64,000 bases of DNA from Patescibacteria group bacterium (GTDB taxonomy: Bacteria > Patescibacteriota > WWE3 > UBA101185 > UBA10185): positions 388,023 through 452,022 of the forward strand of contig JBMORU010000001.1 in NCBI GenBank assembly GCA_049322215.1, given 5' to 3'. The translations under genes and the position numbers were made by a program. Below, in pieces: positions 4,244 through 19,787 of this stretch. Under the pieces are notes generated by a model. It ran no database searches and was not told the DNA's origin. It saw nothing but the letters and a program-made list of their open reading frames with translations. How positions within the stretch are numbered: position 1 is the first letter of the stretch; each line of letters begins with the position of its first letter.

Positions 4244-4379
4244 TGGGGCTTCGTTTCACTCAGCCTCCTTTTTCACTCATTGCATTCGTTCAAAAGAATG
4301 AACCTCAGCTGAAGCTAAGTTTCAATCCACACACCTACGATGCAAATTTGTTCACCACTTTGTGGTAATCAAATTTCCA

Positions 4380-4456
4380 TGGTCGGGGTGACAGGACTTG
4401 AACCTGCGACCTCCCGGCCCCCAGCCGGACGCGCTAGCCAACTGCGCCACACCCCG
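4380..4456 (-). tRNA. tRNA-Pro (anticodon GGG)
   Basis: Reverse complement CGGGGTGTGGCGCAGTTGGCTAGCGCGTCCGGCTGGGGGCCGGGAGGTCGCAGGTTCAAGTCCTGTCACCCCGACCA folds as a cloverleaf. Acceptor stem 7 bp, anticodon stem TCCGG/CCGGG, loop CTGGGGG, GTTCAAG T-loop. CCA is encoded. Confidence 0.85.
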
Positions 4457-4522
4457 TTATTTCAGCTACACTATTTTAGCACCCTGCTGTACATAATTTA
4501 TAACATATGAAAGAATTCACAT

Positions 4523-4936
4523 ATGACAAAAGCATCCGCACCACAAATTCACTATGCGCACTTTGGAACCCGCTTTTTAGCGTTTATTTTTGATATTGTG
4601 TTTACCTCCGTTTTAAGTGGAACTTTGTTAATTTTTATAGCACCCGATGCTAGTCCGCTTAATCCTTTTCCTATGCTATTTTGGTGGGGATATTTAATTT
4701 TTACTGATGTGCACTACGGATACTCTGTTGGTAAACGCATGTTTGGCCTAAAGGTTGTAAACAAAGATACAGGTGAAAAACTAAATTACTTTGAATCCGG
4801 AATAAGAGAGTCTATAGGAAGAATGTTATCTTCAATTGTTTTGGGAATAGGCTACTTATGGATGCTTTTTGATAAAAATAAACAAACCTGGCACGATAAG
4901 CTAAGCAATAGTATTGTAATAACGATGGAAGCTTAA
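4523..4936 (+). CDS. RDD-family membrane protein
   Basis: RDD-like pattern (R..D..D spacing with flanking TM helices). Three predicted TM segments. Confidence 0.55.
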   Translation: MTKASAPQIHYAHFGTRFLAFIFDIVFTSVLSGTLLIFIAPDASPLNPFPMLFWWGYLIFTDVHYGYSVGKRMFGLKVVNKDTGEKLNYFESGIRESIGRMLSSIVLGIGYLWMLFDKNKQTWHDKLSNSIVITMEA

Positions 4937-4969
4937 TATTAGTTTGTATACTAAACTCCCATCATTTTG

Positions 4970-5239
4970 TTATTTGCATTTGAAAAACCACATGTCGTGG
5001 GGCTTACCTACTGCGTCTTTGGGGGCTTTAGCCTGGCCATTTACGTGCTCGTGAAGAAATACATGTGGATGCGCATCTTTTCTTACTACTTCGATGTTTG
5101 GAGGAATTTGCCCGTAAAATACTCCCGATGCTTTGGCTAATGCTGTATTAAGCTTAGTTCCAGCATTAACTGCTTGGTCAACACGCAACCAAAACTTGCT
5201 GTTGTTTCCGTGAAAGACAACAATTTTTGAATTTACCAT
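4970..5239 (-). CDS. hypothetical small protein
   Basis: Strong SD (AAGGAGAG, 5-nt spacer) on the minus strand. G+C moderately elevated. No motif recognised. Confidence 0.5.
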   Translation of the reverse strand: MVNSKIVVFHGNNSKFWLRVDQAVNAGTKLNTALAKASGVFYGQIPPNIEVVRKDAHPHVFLHEHVNGQAKAPKDAVGKPHDMWFFKCK

Positions 5240-5298
5240 TTTTCTCTCCTTATATTCGTAGATAAATTATTAAAATGATACCCTATAAAATTGTATAG

Positions 5299-5937
5299 TC
5301 AACTTTGGAAGATTAGCTTAAACAAGGGTCGTTGTTGCCCATACGCAAGTTTTTTACCCCAAGAAGATTCGACTTTGGACAATTCTTTTTTGTTTAATTC
5401 ATCAATTTGCTTAAGCCTAAAATTTACTTTTTCAAATTCAGGTACAATTTGTTCTAATATTTGTTCTTTATTCAAGTGTTCAAGGTTTAATCTTTCAAAT
5501 TCTGTGGGTTCTGCTTCGTTTGTGTATCCAAAAATTATTTCTAAGGTGCCTCTTGGCTTAAGTAAGTTTTTAATAAAATTTAACTGAGTTTCGTTAGGTT
5601 TTGCTACAGCTTGTAATAAACTACCCCAGGGTAAATTTATAGTTACTGTATCTGCTATATTTTCAAGTTCTTCAGGTAAGTTTTCTAAGCTTGCTAAAAC
5701 AAACATAACATTTTGCACTTTGCTTCTTACTGCTTTTTTTGAATATTCTTGCAATTGTTTTTCATTTGGGTCTATACCTATATAAAGACTATTTTTGTTA
5801 GCTATAGCATTTTTGTACACAAATCTGCCGTTGCCTGTACCCAAATCAATGTGCGTTTTTTGGTACTTTCTTAACGTTTCTCTAAAATTTTCAGGTTTTT
5901 CTTCTATTAGTTTGTTTCCTTTTACTAGTTTAATCAC
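5299..5937 (-). CDS. 16S rRNA (adenine1408-N1)-methyltransferase homologue, Kam/NpmA family (aminoglycoside-resistance-type MTase)
   Basis: Blocks matching NpmA/KamB as I recall them: HIDLGTGNGRFVYKNAIANKNSLYIGIDP, NVMFVLASLENLPEELENIADTVTINLPWGSLLQAVAKPN, and C-terminal SSWGKKLAYGQQRPLF. This includes the two catalytic Trp positions (PWG and SxW). Length 212 aa matches the family. Confidence 0.75.
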   Translation of the reverse strand: MIKLVKGNKLIEEKPENFRETLRKYQKTHIDLGTGNGRFVYKNAIANKNSLYIGIDPNEKQLQEYSKKAVRSKVQNVMFVLASLENLPEELENIADTVTINLPWGSLLQAVAKPNETQLNFIKNLLKPRGTLEIIFGYTNEAEPTEFERLNLEHLNKEQILEQIVPEFEKVNFRLKQIDELNKKELSKVESSWGKKLAYGQQRPLFKLIFQS

Positions 5938-5965
5938 TATAGTATGTTAAATTAATACCGTACTT

Positions 5966-6796
5966 ATGGAATTATCGCACACAAAACCTGAAATAATAGC
6001 AATTTGGCAACCATTTGGTTTTTCTACTCACATTATTACTAAAAAGGTTTCTGAGTTATTACAAACACCCACCTCACATACGGGAACCTTAGATCCCATG
6101 GCTGAAGGTGTAATAGTTGTTCTTACTGGAGAAAACAGGCATAAAAAGTATGAGTATGCCTCTTGGCTAAAAACTTACGAATTCAACCTAGTTTTGGGGG
6201 TTTCTACCGATAGTTATGATGGATTAGGTTTGATGACTTCTAACTTTATAAAACCTAATTTAACCGAAAATCATATAAATTTAGCACTTGTACAAATAAA
6301 ATCTCAAAAACCATATATACAAACAATACCTCCTTATTCTGCAATTAAGGTTAATGGTAAACCTTTGCATTGGTATGCCCGCAGCAATATGCTTGCTGAA
6401 GTTACGCTTCCAACTCGCTCTGGTGAGATTTACGAGTTGTCTTTGGTTAGCCTAAAAGAGGTGAATCTTGAAAGTGCCCTAAAGCTTATAATAAATCGAA
6501 CTAATCTTGTGACGGGGAATTTACGTCAGCCTGTGGTTTTAGCTCAGTGGGAAAAATTTTTAAAAGACGTTGGGAACCTTTCTACATATGAGCTTGTTTT
6601 GAGGGTCAAGTTAACTAAGGGTCTATATGTTCGCTCGTTGAGTCAGGATATTTGCAAACAACTAGATTGTACCGGCTTTGTCTCTAGTATATCTAGAATT
6701 GATAATGGTCTCTACAATAAAAGCAATTGCGTAACCTTAGAGCAATTATTTGGTTCAAATTATAATAGAGATCAAAAGTTTGATTCAATAACGTAA
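5966..6796 (+). CDS. truB: tRNA pseudouridine(55) synthase
   Basis: TruB catalytic motif HTGTLDPMAEGVIVV. Length fits. Confidence 0.8.
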   Translation: MELSHTKPEIIAIWQPFGFSTHIITKKVSELLQTPTSHTGTLDPMAEGVIVVLTGENRHKKYEYASWLKTYEFNLVLGVSTDSYDGLGLMTSNFIKPNLTENHINLALVQIKSQKPYIQTIPPYSAIKVNGKPLHWYARSNMLAEVTLPTRSGEIYELSLVSLKEVNLESALKLIINRTNLVTGNLRQPVVLAQWEKFLKDVGNLSTYELVLRVKLTKGLYVRSLSQDICKQLDCTGFVSSISRIDNGLYNKSNCVTLEQLFGSNYNRDQKFDSIT

Positions 6797-6907
6797 TTTA
6801 GTTCGTCATTTAGGAATCAGGTTTTATTTAACAGCTATAGTACTTGAACTTATTGGCATACCAAACTAAACTGATTGGGCTTAATACTTAATTTTAGGAG
6901 TAATTAA

Positions 6908-7267
6908 ATGACAGAAGAAATGATTATTAAAAGGCTAAAAATAATTGACGATTTGAGCCAAGAACTAAATTCACTTAAAGAAACATTTGAAGGAATGTTA
7001 GAAGATGACCCTCAATATCAGGATTTTCAGGAGGAAGAAAACAAAATAAAAGAAGAGCGTAAAGAAAAAAAAGACAAAATAATGGCAAATAGTGCTTACA
7101 AAGACGTTAACGAGCAACTCAAAGAAAAAAGACAAGATATAAAAGAAAACAAGGAAGCATTGGCTCAAGAATTAGTAGAATACTATAAAGAGACAGGCTC
7201 TTTAGAGTTTACTGATCAATATGGTGAAACTAAAAGATTAAAATTCTCGGTTCGGCTGATTAATTAG
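6908..7267 (+). CDS. hypothetical coiled-coil protein
   Basis: AGGAG SD. Highly charged K/E-rich helical sequence. Confidence 0.45.
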   Translation: MTEEMIIKRLKIIDDLSQELNSLKETFEGMLEDDPQYQDFQEEENKIKEERKEKKDKIMANSAYKDVNEQLKEKRQDIKENKEALAQELVEYYKETGSLEFTDQYGETKRLKFSVRLIN

Positions 7268-7431
7268 TAAGATTCGATAAAGTTTTGTATTTATGTTATC
7301 ATCGCAGCGATATGTCAATTAAGAAAAAGAAAAAAGAATCACAAAAGAATAAAAGTGTTAGACGTAGTAAGAAGAAAACAAAAAGAGTTTGTTAATATTT
7401 TATTCGTTTAGCTCTTTAAACTTGCTGTCCA

Positions 7432-17913: not shown

Positions 17914-18996
17914 ATGAAAAGTATAACCATAAAAAACAAAGCATATGATTTTCCCATATTTCTACCAGACGCAACTAGAGCGGTAACTAAGAGTATTGAT
18001 TCAAACGATATGGTGTTTGCCGAGGTAAGGGGTTGCGTGGTTAATACCTACCACTTAATGAGCGAACCCGGTGTTTCGGTTTTAAAACACTTTGGAGGAA
18101 TAAAAGGATTTATGAAGTTCGACGGGTTAGTTGTATCAGACTCTGGAGGTTGGCAGGTTTTTTCTTTAATTCATAGAAATAAAAAAGCGGGTACTATAAC
18201 AGACAAAGGTGTTACTTTTTCTTTAGGTGGGGCCAAGAAAAAACTTTTTACCCCGGAAAAATCAATCCAAGTGCAAATGGATATAGGTTCTGATATTGTA
18301 ATTTGTTTAGATGACTTCAGTCCCCCCGAAGGTGATGATATCGCTATTGAAGAAAGTGTTGTGCGAACTACTAAATGGGCAAAGCGTTGTAGAGAAGAAT
18401 TCGATCGTCAGTGTGAAGTGCGAAAGCTTGATGATTCTTCAAGACCTCACTTATTTGCCGTAGTTCAAGGAGCACGCAGTAAACCCATGCGAGACAAAAG
18501 TGCTACAGAATTGCGTGAAATTGGTTTTGACGGCTATGGTTTTGGAGGTTACCTAATTGACGAAGAAGGCAACTTAGATTTAGATATGATGGAATATCTT
18601 GCAAGTATTATTCCCAATGATTTACCTAAATTTGCATTAGGAACCGGTTCTCCACATGAAATTGCTATGTGCTATCAACTGGGTTGGGATATATTTGACT
18701 GTACTTTGCCTACGAGAGATGCTCGTCATCAAAGACTTTACGTTTTTACTGAAGAACCAAATTCCGTTGATGCCCTGCTTAAAGAAGAAACTTATGGCTA
18801 TGTACAAATAAAACGGGAAAAGTATAGACGCGATGAACGTCCTATAAGTGATTTTTGTGATTGCTATACCTGCAAAAACTATTCAAGAGCTTATCTTCAA
18901 CATTTATTTAGCATAAAAGATACTTCTGCTTTTAGATTAGCTACAATTCACAATTTATGGACTTATAACAAGCTAATAAGTTTACTATCAAAATGA
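17914..18996 (+). CDS. tgt: queuine/guanine tRNA-ribosyltransferase (Tgt family)
   Basis: FPIFLPDATRAVTK, NTYHL, GGWQVFSL, and the zinc motif CDCYTCKNYSRAYLQHL. Confidence 0.8.
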   Translation: MKSITIKNKAYDFPIFLPDATRAVTKSIDSNDMVFAEVRGCVVNTYHLMSEPGVSVLKHFGGIKGFMKFDGLVVSDSGGWQVFSLIHRNKKAGTITDKGVTFSLGGAKKKLFTPEKSIQVQMDIGSDIVICLDDFSPPEGDDIAIEESVVRTTKWAKRCREEFDRQCEVRKLDDSSRPHLFAVVQGARSKPMRDKSATELREIGFDGYGFGGYLIDEEGNLDLDMMEYLASIIPNDLPKFALGTGSPHEIAMCYQLGWDIFDCTLPTRDARHQRLYVFTEEPNSVDALLKEETYGYVQIKREKYRRDERPISDFCDCYTCKNYSRAYLQHLFSIKDTSAFRLATIHNLWTYNKLISLLSK

Positions 18997-19787
18997 GTTT
19001 AGAAAACGAGATTTTAAAAGCACAGCAGTCAAAAAAGTATTCTCACATTTCAGAAACAACCATTAAAAATATATTTGAAACTGAATTTCAAAATATAAAA
19101 AACGAAAAACGTGCGTTAGAAAGTGCAAAGAAAAAATTACACAGAGTGGTTGCCGAGTACTTAGGGGATCTTAATTATGATCAAGCTTTTTTAGAGTTGA
19201 AAACCGCTTATGAAACAAAAAAAGTGGAAGAAATCAAAAATGTGTGCATACAGCTTATGAACGCACATTTCACAACACGAGAGCGGTTACCTATTTTAGA
19301 AGATTTTTACAAAAAAATTTTCGAAACTACCGGAGAGGTTAATTCTATTTTAGACTTAGCCTGCGGAATTAATCCTCTTGCTTTGCCTTGGATGCCTCAG
19401 GTTAAACATTACCATGCTTACGATATAAATATACCTCGAGTTGATTTTATAAATAAGTTTTTAAACTTAAACGAACTGCCTGAAGATGCACAGGCTAAAG
19501 ATGTTTTAGCGAATATTCCATCTGAGCAAGGCGATGTGGCATTACTACTAAAAGAAATACACAGAATGTTTGAACGAAACAAGGCACTAACAATAAAGCT
19601 TTTAGAGGAAGTGCAAGTTAAATGGTTAGTAGTTTCTATACCTGTTTCTAATATGAGAAAAGAATGGGCAATGCCCAAAAAGTATGAAGCTGCCGTTTTA
19701 GCTGTAATTGAAGAGCACAAATGGCCTTATTTTGTTTTAGAATTTGATACAGAAAAGGTATTTTTGATTAATAAAGAAGTGTATTAA
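18993..19787 (+). CDS. 16S rRNA (guanine1405-N7)-methyltransferase homologue, FmrO/ArmA/Rmt family (aminoglycoside-resistance-type MTase)
   Basis: Blocks matching ArmA/Rmt as I recall them: QSKKYSHIS.., KKKLHRVVAEY, TTRERLPILEDFY, SAM motif ILDLACGINPLALPW, YHAYDIN. Length 264 aa. The ATG overlaps the tgt stop (ATGA). Confidence 0.7.
   Translation: MSLENEILKAQQSKKYSHISETTIKNIFETEFQNIKNEKRALESAKKKLHRVVAEYLGDLNYDQAFLELKTAYETKKVEEIKNVCIQLMNAHFTTRERLPILEDFYKKIFETTGEVNSILDLACGINPLALPWMPQVKHYHAYDINIPRVDFINKFLNLNELPEDAQAKDVLANIPSEQGDVALLLKEIHRMFERNKALTIKLLEEVQVKWLVVSIPVSNMRKEWAMPKKYEAAVLAVIEEHKWPYFVLEFDTEKVFLINKEVY

Follow-up and report, generated by a model that had tools for sequence, protein, structure and literature searches.

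A Kam/NpmA-type 16S rRNA methyltransferase homologue in a WWE3-type Patescibacteria genome: chromosomal setting and indications of vertical inheritance

The closest described systems to the gene reported here are the 16S rRNA methyltransferases of the Kam/NpmA family. NpmA (E. coli pARS3) methylates N1 of A1408 in the intact 30S subunit, and the npmA gene is carried on mobile elements, with npmA2 located on Tn7734/ICE Tn7740 in C. difficile and E. faecium (PMC12271512). The origin of npmA is undetermined and anaerobic Gram-positive gut commensals are suspected (PMC12271512), in agreement with the first-pass annotation of the present DNA, which had called the donor lineage of npmA-like genes poorly known. 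NpmB1 (PDB 7ehf) and WarA of Nocardia (NCBIfam NF051863) belong to the same family. KamB of an aminoglycoside producer, Kmr of Sorangium and CacKam of Catenulispora are chromosomal and intrinsic, not acquired, as is the gene described here. In a 2014 BBA study, Witek and Conn reportedly characterised four hypothetical Kam enzymes, all four of which are said to have conferred resistance and modified A1408. Another member was deposited as PDB 7jlz under the title '30S ribosomal A1408 methyltransferase from an uncultured bacterium (UncKam)' and released in 2021; its sequence is recorded as '16S rRNA methylase [uncultured bacterium]', and our literature search found no paper naming 7JLZ or UncKam. 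For Patescibacteria (CPR), a July 2026 preprint (bioRxiv 10.64898/2026.07.13.738296) describes a survey of resistance-type methyltransferases in 12,552 CPR genomes. Its authors also put two CPR genes, one npmA-like and the other grm-like, into E. coli BL21 on pET-22b and found the aminoglycoside MIC unchanged; the npmA-like gene encodes a protein other than ours.

We analysed a 64,000-nucleotide stretch of a Patescibacteria contig (the window) that carries a methyltransferase gene whose features are collected in Table 1. The ORF was full length and undisrupted, and a (+)-strand ORF overlapping it at 5291-5587 was treated as a shadow ORF. The NCBI entry for the identical protein is a class I SAM-dependent methyltransferase from a Patescibacteria group bacterium MAG, on a contig of 1,112,869 bp, and a Logan contig of 176,755 bp carries the identical protein, with its genes in the same order.

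When the protein was searched against profile libraries, Pfam PF24675 (NpmA) gave a score of 193.6 bits (cutoff 60; E 3.5e-57), spanning residues 4-204 of 212 in the query and 2-206 of 214 in the model, while generic methyltransferase Pfam models reached at most 52 bits. The top NCBIfam ranks were NpmA (146 bits), WarA (125 bits), NpmB (120 bits) and KamB (76 bits). All four scores lay far under the allele-level cutoffs of these models (470, 305, 460 and 350, respectively), which places the query in the Kam/NpmA family and makes it none of the named resistance alleles. BLASTP gave 37.1% identity to NpmA over 210 aa (E 1.6e-48). Among PDB sequences, phmmer ranked 7jlz first (198 bits, 1e-57; 45% identity over 209 aa), followed by NpmA (148 bits, 3e-42), NpmB1 (123 bits) and then Kmr, CacKam and KamB, and the nearest protein outside the family was TrmB at E 0.013. 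The first-pass annotation had proposed a Kam/NpmA-type homologue and a BLASTP or HMM comparison as its check; specific family matches outranked generic SAM methyltransferases in that comparison, and together with the structural neighbours described below they make the assignment to the Kam/NpmA family secure. The three NpmA motif strings that it had listed were found at query residues 29-57, 76-108 and 191-200 as well as in NpmA from PDB 3p2e, an agreement far outside what chance would give.

The predicted fold was in accordance with this. An AF2 model built from 11 aligned sequences had a mean pLDDT of 91.2 and a pTM of 0.89, and low confidence was confined to residues 194-200, in the beta6/7 linker just past W193. 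For Kmr and CacKam, this linker has been described as mobile, extended or disordered (PMC4705659). The model has the class I SAM methyltransferase core of the family with its augmented beta5/6 and beta6/7 linkers, and strands at residues 2-6 and 9-13 formed the N-terminal beta-hairpin extension. In a Foldseek search of the PDB, the 19 highest-ranking matches were all A1408 methyltransferases (TM 0.75-0.90, E 1e-22 to 5e-17), and generic methyltransferases ranked next at E about 1e-10 and TM about 0.6. The superposition on NpmA that had been suggested earlier gave TM 0.90 and an rmsd of 2.3 A against NpmA-SAM (3mte_A). NpmB1 aligned at TM 0.85 and 34% identity. KamB, Kmr and CacKam shared the fold and the Trp pair with the query (TM 0.75-0.88) but differed from it in being only 22-28% identical, in coming from high-GC organisms and in having different linkers.

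Functional residues of NpmA were taken from a summary of the NpmA-30S structure (PMC4705659) and mapped onto the query and 81 full-length homologues. We found that the residues known to be critical in NpmA were all kept, save one Arg that was shifted by one position. D31, G33, G35 and G37 were invariant in the 81 homologues, and D30, the NpmA counterpart of D31, is essential in both NpmA and KamB (PMC4705659). Together with D56 and E85 (= NpmA E88), these SAM-binding residues were kept in 74-81 of 81 homologues. The two catalytic Trp positions noted in the first-pass annotation were confirmed: W104, with P103 (= NpmA P106) and G105, was present in 81/81 homologues, and W193 in 80/81. In NpmA, residues of the beta6/7 linker hold the flipped base in position and grip its phosphate; their counterparts S191 and K196 were near-invariant across the 81 homologues, and R203 was kept in 79/81. 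E143 was kept in 79/81 homologues and in 70 of 71 CPR-type sequences.

The differences from NpmA lay in the linkers that contact the ribosome. The beta2/3 linker, which has a role in docking of NpmA on 16S rRNA (PMC4705659), was 4 residues shorter in the query and had Ser72 at the position of NpmA K71, although K67, K68, R71 and K73 keep it basic; in NpmA the positive charge of the linker comes from K66, K67, K70 and K71. In the beta5/6 linker, the column of NpmA R153 held Leu150 in the query and Leu in 69/71 CPR-type sequences, whereas NpmA-type sequences had Arg there in 8/10. Arg149, one position before L150, was present in 70/71 CPR-type sequences, so that R149, judged from the alignment, may make the same rRNA contact as NpmA R153 with the basic residue shifted by one position. 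A contact of R153 with rRNA has been described for NpmA only, its counterparts in KamB and Kmr being unclear (PMC4705659). Leu150 at the R153 column, Ser72 in place of K71 and the shorter beta2/3 linker suggest that recognition of the 30S subunit may differ from that of NpmA.

Table 1. Positions of the methyltransferase gene, its mapped functional elements and its neighbours in the window.
Feature	Position	Strand	Remark
Methyltransferase CDS, 212 aa	5299..5937	(-)	GTG start at 5937; stop codon 5299-5301
SAM-binding motif D31-L-G-T-G-N-G37	5827..5847	(-)	= NpmA D30 + GxGxG
D56, second SAM-binding Asp	5770..5772	(-)	= NpmA D55; Asp in 79/81 homologues
Basic beta2/3 linker K67-K68-A-V-R71-S-K73	5719..5739	(-)	predicted 16S rRNA docking surface
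W104 in P-W-G motif	5626..5628	(-)	= NpmA W107
beta5/6 linker E143-P-T-E146-F-E-R149	5491..5511	(-)	E143 = NpmA E146
beta6/7 linker S191-S-W193-G-K195-K196 ... R203	5329..5367	(-)	= NpmA S195, W197, K199, R200, R207
RDD-family membrane protein, downstream neighbour	4523..4936	(+)	PF06271, 84 bits
Divergent intergenic region, 28 bp	5938..5965	.	between methyltransferase GTG and truB ATG
truB (tRNA pseudouridine-55 synthase), divergent neighbour	5966..6796	(+)	PF01509, 83 bits
119-aa helical protein, no known family	6908..7267	(+)	neighbour commonest beside methyltransferase

We then considered the surroundings of the gene. The position next to truB on the chromosome, claimed in the earlier annotation, was borne out by the TruB match. 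Six of the 10 flanking ORFs matched known families (NUDIX, DUF1801, RDD, TruB, an SNase-like nuclease and a thioredoxin/DsbD-like protein), with a tRNA-Pro also nearby, and the other four, all small, had no Pfam match. None of the 10 matched a mobile-element family. The other window genes that were scanned were housekeeping genes, namely mutS, mutL, tgt, pyruvate:ferredoxin oxidoreductase, exonuclease VII, CorA, enolase and iPGM. The 119-aa neighbour had no match in Pfam, NCBIfam or the PDB, and its AF2 model, obtained from a single sequence, showed long helices with a pTM of 0.30. GC content was uniform along the window at about 35%. Compared with 53 other window ORFs, the methyltransferase gene had a GC of 0.310 (z -1.3) and a GC3 of 0.231 (z -0.8), and its codon-adaptation index was 48th of 54 ORFs, above average. 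The AT-rich codon usage previously described as native is therefore typical of the window.

No Shine-Dalgarno sequence was visible in the intergenic stretch between the methyltransferase gene and truB, which is too short to hold a leader or an attenuator. Scanned over its whole length with Rfam, the window yielded two tRNAs only, so there is no sign of a riboswitch or leader near the gene. A search of 4300-7400 for promoters and terminators gave no more than chance matches and was uninformative. With 28 bp upstream and no leader, the methyltransferase gene is probably expressed constitutively, and its transcript could possibly be leaderless.

To place the gene among its relatives, we used a genome scan with one genome per GTDB species and a narrow alignment as the query. 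It found 330 relatives, of which the best 80 were analysed as loci. Forty-nine of these 80 were CPR-labelled (candidate division WWE3, or MAGs labelled Saccharibacteria or Patescibacteria); with 2 more that were labelled only 'bacterium' and clustered with them, they made up a CPR set of 51, whose proteins were 37-53% identical to the query. The other 29 of the best 80 were 31-40% identical and came from Bacillota, Acidobacteriota, Chloroflexota, Melainabacteria, Dependentiae and Actinomycetota. The best-80 loci were searched with the neighbouring proteins of the window. truB was found in 27 loci, all of them CPR, and in 25 it was the direct neighbour in divergent orientation. Of the CPR loci, 33/51 carried the 119-aa protein, in 13 of them without truB in between, and the RDD protein in 10 CPR loci. 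In all, truB and/or the 119-aa protein flanked the gene in 40/51 CPR loci, with methyltransferases 41-53% identical; the closed genome CP006914 (RAAC2_WWE3_1) was among the 40. None of the three neighbours was found in the 29 non-CPR loci among the best 80 of 330.

Furthermore, Nei-Gojobori dN/dS was 0.07-0.18 in the 14 CPR pairs with unsaturated dS, which points to strong purifying selection on the CPR methyltransferases. No family member turned up when 72,556 plasmids were searched by tblastn. Gene order kept at 41-53% identity, native composition and purifying selection together argue for long vertical inheritance. We rejected recent horizontal acquisition because the composition is native, the synteny is conserved, no neighbour belongs to a mobile-element family and no plasmid matched, and the gene does not have the features by which acquired or mobile 16S methyltransferase genes are recognised. 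Collectively, these data indicate that this Kam/NpmA-family gene belongs to the chromosome of a WWE3-type Patescibacteria (CPR) bacterium and has been passed on vertically.

When 103 sequences were placed in a neighbour-joining tree with 200 bootstraps, all CPR sequences, including the query and UncKam, fell in one clade, though with a support of only 138/200 (69%). Within it, UncKam (P0183) and the methyltransferase of the CPR-labelled locus L018 were separated by a branch of near-zero length, and a protein 76% identical to UncKam is known from candidate division WWE3 bacterium RIFCSPHIGHO2_12_FULL_38_15. UncKam resembles the query in its length (214 aa), in having the same short beta2/3 linker and in the same Arg-Leu signature of the beta5/6 linker, and its clade-mate locus L018 carries the 119-aa neighbour, as does the query locus; it differs in having Glu, not Ser, at the position of NpmA K71. 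As 7jlz falls inside the CPR clade, a member of this clade has already been recognised and crystallised. The clade of CPR relatives is thus already known, with UncKam in it and CPR npmA-like genes surveyed before, and the novelty implied by the first-pass annotation was overstated. Our analysis adds that the synteny is conserved, that the linkers carry a signature specific to the clade, and that an FmrO-type gene, described below, lies in the same window.

The same tree bears on the clinical gene. NpmA and its close relatives formed a separate clade (192/200, 96%) that excluded all CPR sequences and was nested in a larger group that also holds Bacillota-labelled sequences. With NpmA as the query, a 92% cluster representative, itself named NpmA, came from a Clostridia MAG, and further relatives were graded from 64 to 45%, the sole named one among these (52%) also being labelled Clostridia. 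CPR proteins appeared in the NpmA search at no more than 40% identity. It had been proposed that the lineage is a possible reservoir for npmA-like genes. npmA is AT-rich, as is this genome, and this likeness was counted in favour of reading the gene as a recently acquired mobile resistance gene or its lineage as the direct donor or reservoir of clinical npmA. The still undetermined origin of npmA (PMC12271512) was counted likewise. However, the query is only 37% identical to NpmA, closer relatives of NpmA are Clostridia where their source is named, and the two groups sit in separate clades, so that a reservoir role is unsupported. An acquired gene is also hard to reconcile with flanking ORFs of which 0/10 are of mobile type, with native composition, with synteny kept across the CPR clade and with the absence of a copy in the plasmids searched. 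We regard the mobile or reservoir reading as very improbable and effectively refuted. In contrast to mobile npmA, the present gene is chromosomal, syntenic and compositionally native. Our result does not tell where clinical npmA came from.

On our analysis, the protein itself most likely uses SAM to methylate N1 of A1408 in the 30S subunits of its own cell, a function that we consider probable; as in NpmA, the predicted target would be A1408 in the intact 30S subunit. Intrinsic methylation of A1408, as put forward in the first-pass annotation, is therefore plausible on the conserved residues. We infer the target nucleotide, the activity on the host ribosome, the expression and the phenotype of the enzyme, and the mechanism was derived by homology with the NpmA-30S structure. 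SAM would be bound through D31, the GxGxG motif, D56 and E85, and the enzyme would dock on the assembled 30S subunit via K67, K68, R71 and K73 of the basic beta2/3 linker. A1408 of helix 44 would be flipped into a pocket formed by W104 and W193, and R203, backed by E143, would clamp the phosphate of the flipped nucleotide, while the clade-specific R149 probably takes over the rRNA contact of NpmA R153. The methyl group would then be passed to N1 of A1408. The enzyme, probably expressed constitutively, would in this way modify the cell's own ribosomes, and the methylated ribosomes would be insensitive to aminoglycosides of the kanamycin, neomycin and apramycin types. A 3' end of 16S rRNA, where A1408 would lie, was not found in the window or in the 80 loci.

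Homologues of both aminoglycoside-resistance 16S methyltransferase families, each beside a tRNA-modification gene, are present in the window. The second is an FmrO/Rmt-type (G1405) homologue of 264 aa at 18993-19787 (+), about 13 kb from the Kam-type gene. It scored 127 bits with Pfam FmrO, where the cutoff is 27, and 166.6 bits with the general NCBIfam Rmt m7G1405 model, under the cutoff of 250, and its best PDB matches were Sgm (E 3e-25), RmtC, RmtB and ArmA. Its ATG overlaps the stop codon of tgt by 4 bp. When metagenomes were scanned with this protein alone no match was found, and a scan with an alignment including Sgm gave 77 loci with FmrO-type relatives at 26-45% identity. In 48/77 of these loci a tgt homologue lay no more than about 1.1 kb from the FmrO-type gene, and in roughly 30 the two abutted. 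The 77 contigs spanned 42-74% GC, unlike the composition of this window, and no Kam-type gene lay within 10 kb of the FmrO-type gene in any of them. The pairing of FmrO-type genes with tgt fits native RNA-modification genes better than resistance islands, and this pattern is the main reason why a housekeeping reading is given substantial probability.

Such a reading takes the protein as a Kam fold with another job, either a housekeeping RNA methyltransferase whose substrate is not A1408 or an enzyme that tunes the ribosome at A1408 with no link to antibiotics, its neighbours being a set of RNA-modification genes. The divergent pairing with truB across deep divergence speaks for it, as do the FmrO/Rmt homologue right after tgt in the same window with its recurrence near tgt in the metagenome loci, the clade-specific changes in the linkers that contact the 30S subunit, and fusions of the NpmA domain with DUF371 that have no evident link to resistance. 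The unchanged MIC of E. coli carrying a CPR npmA-like gene has also been counted here (bioRxiv 10.64898/2026.07.13.738296). The authors of that preprint hold that the CPR genes have not evolved mainly for aminoglycoside resistance and that fermentative CPR cells would take up aminoglycosides poorly, which weakens the case for selection by drug protection. However, the accessible part of the text mentions no check of expression or methylation and the accession labels of the two genes look swapped in its methods, so that the negative MIC result is weak but real. Against a different target stand the residues of the adenine pocket and the clamp (the two Trp, Arg203 and Glu143), whose invariance or near-invariance argues for the same target chemistry, and the name of 30S A1408 methyltransferase given to the clade member 7jlz by its depositors. 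The version in which the ribosome is tuned at A1408 differs in purpose only and is compatible with N1 methylation of A1408 as the best explanation. Taken together, we judge another job for the fold to be unlikely, though well short of negligible.

By comparison, it is scarcely credible that the gene is a relic, in decay or without catalytic activity. The CPR homologue with no phenotype in E. coli (bioRxiv 10.64898/2026.07.13.738296) would agree with a relic, as would the GTG start and the lack of a visible Shine-Dalgarno sequence. A relic would nevertheless not be expected to have an intact, full-length ORF with all SAM-binding and catalytic residues in place, the low dN/dS that marks strong purifying selection in the clade, or a gene kept in very small genomes, including a closed genome of 878 kb.

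If N1 methylation of A1408 is the correct function, the purpose it serves can still be read in more than one way, as protection from drugs or as tuning of the ribosome. We entertain as a tentative possibility, which we doubt somewhat more than we believe, that in WWE3-type CPR m1A1408, and possibly m7G1405 via the FmrO-type gene, is a constitutive housekeeping modification of the decoding centre, made by methyltransferase genes that are vertically inherited and set among RNA-modification genes. If true, a whole lineage of non-producers would have natively 'resistance-methylated' ribosomes, and the ancestral role of both enzyme families would be ribosome tuning, not antibiotic defence. If native m1A1408 were demonstrated, it would follow that a modification counted as 'resistance' can serve as a housekeeping trait of an entire lineage. 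The gene also adds an example of the NpmA/Kam family as an old, chromosomally fixed gene in ultra-small uncultured bacteria. In metagenomic 'resistome' counts such genes are scored as aminoglycoside-resistance determinants; here they look like native ribosome-modification genes, distant from mobilised npmA and with no sign of mobility.

We also looked at the extent of the family. Among 1.84 billion cluster representatives at 50% identity there were 477 matches at E <= 1e-10 and 50 at E <= 1e-30, so that the Kam/NpmA family is small. When nine longer family proteins were scanned, seven consisted of an N-terminal NpmA-type domain followed by DUF371, and one combined such a domain with an alpha/beta hydrolase.

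A second candidate methyltransferase gene was found in the window, beside the tRNA-modification gene tgt and about 13 kb from the Kam-type gene. The protein that it encodes scored 127 bits against Pfam PF07091 and 166.6 bits against the general Rmt model of NCBIfam, which is below that model's cutoff of 250, and its top PDB match was Sgm (E = 3e-25). Together with the Kam-type gene, this FmrO-type homologue means that both families of aminoglycoside-resistance 16S methyltransferases are represented by homologues in the window. The stop of tgt and the start of the FmrO-type gene share 4 bp.

Features of the window around the Kam-type and FmrO-type genes
Feature	Position	Strand	Remarks
89-aa ORF	4970-5239	-	same strand as the methyltransferase, 59 bp downstream of it
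Divergent gap	5938-5965		methyltransferase GTG to truB ATG, 28 bp
119-aa protein	6908-7267	+	mostly helical; no family match
tgt	17914-18996	+	
FmrO/Rmt/Sgm-family homologue	18993-19787	+	264 aa; 16S rRNA m7G1405 methyltransferase family; Pfam PF07091, NCBIfam, PDB

When 77 metagenome loci with FmrO-type relatives (L082-L158) were examined, a tgt homologue lay within about 1.1 kb of the FmrO-type gene in 48, and in roughly 30 of the 77 the two genes abutted directly. The contigs with tgt near the FmrO-type gene had 42-74% GC, a composition unlike that of the 35%-GC window, a pattern that suggests a widespread tgt-linked FmrO subgroup, housekeeping in appearance. None of the 77 contigs carried a Kam-type gene within 10 kb.

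At the Kam-type gene itself, no Shine-Dalgarno sequence was seen before the GTG in the gap shared with truB, and TAACAT was found at -12 to -7, so that, judging from these bases, a leaderless methyltransferase transcript is possible. Similarly short gaps, about 17-100 bp, recurred across the related loci. The commonest neighbour of the Kam-type gene was the 119-aa protein, present in 33 of the 51 CPR loci within the best 80 of 330 relatives; in 13 of those 33 it stood beside the Kam-type gene without an intervening truB. Searches of Pfam, NCBIfam and PDB with this protein gave no matches, and its single-sequence AF2 model was uninformative (pTM 0.30). On the other side, AAGGAGAG precedes the 89-aa ORF, which appears by sequence comparison to be specific to the source genome, since it matched no family and none of the 80 related loci (best 80 of 330) contained a homologue.

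Npm­A-like and grm-like CPR genes have been put into E. coli; in the Methods of the study (bioRxiv 10.64898/2026.07.13.738296), the accession and annotation strings of the tested CPR 'npmA' and 'grm' are seemingly swapped between WWE3 and Parcubacteria assemblies, leaving the source genome of the npmA-like construct ambiguous from that text.

Outside the window, the NpmA-type domain also occurred in fusions. Among the homologous proteins, P0305 (509 aa) had an N-terminal region without known identity, and P0270 was a single alpha/beta-hydrolase-NpmA fusion. A recurrent arrangement, with an N-terminal NpmA-type domain (171-237 bits) and a C-terminal DUF371 in proteins of 343-380 aa, was found in P0297, P0298, P0330, P0346, P0347, P0355, P0376 and P0131.
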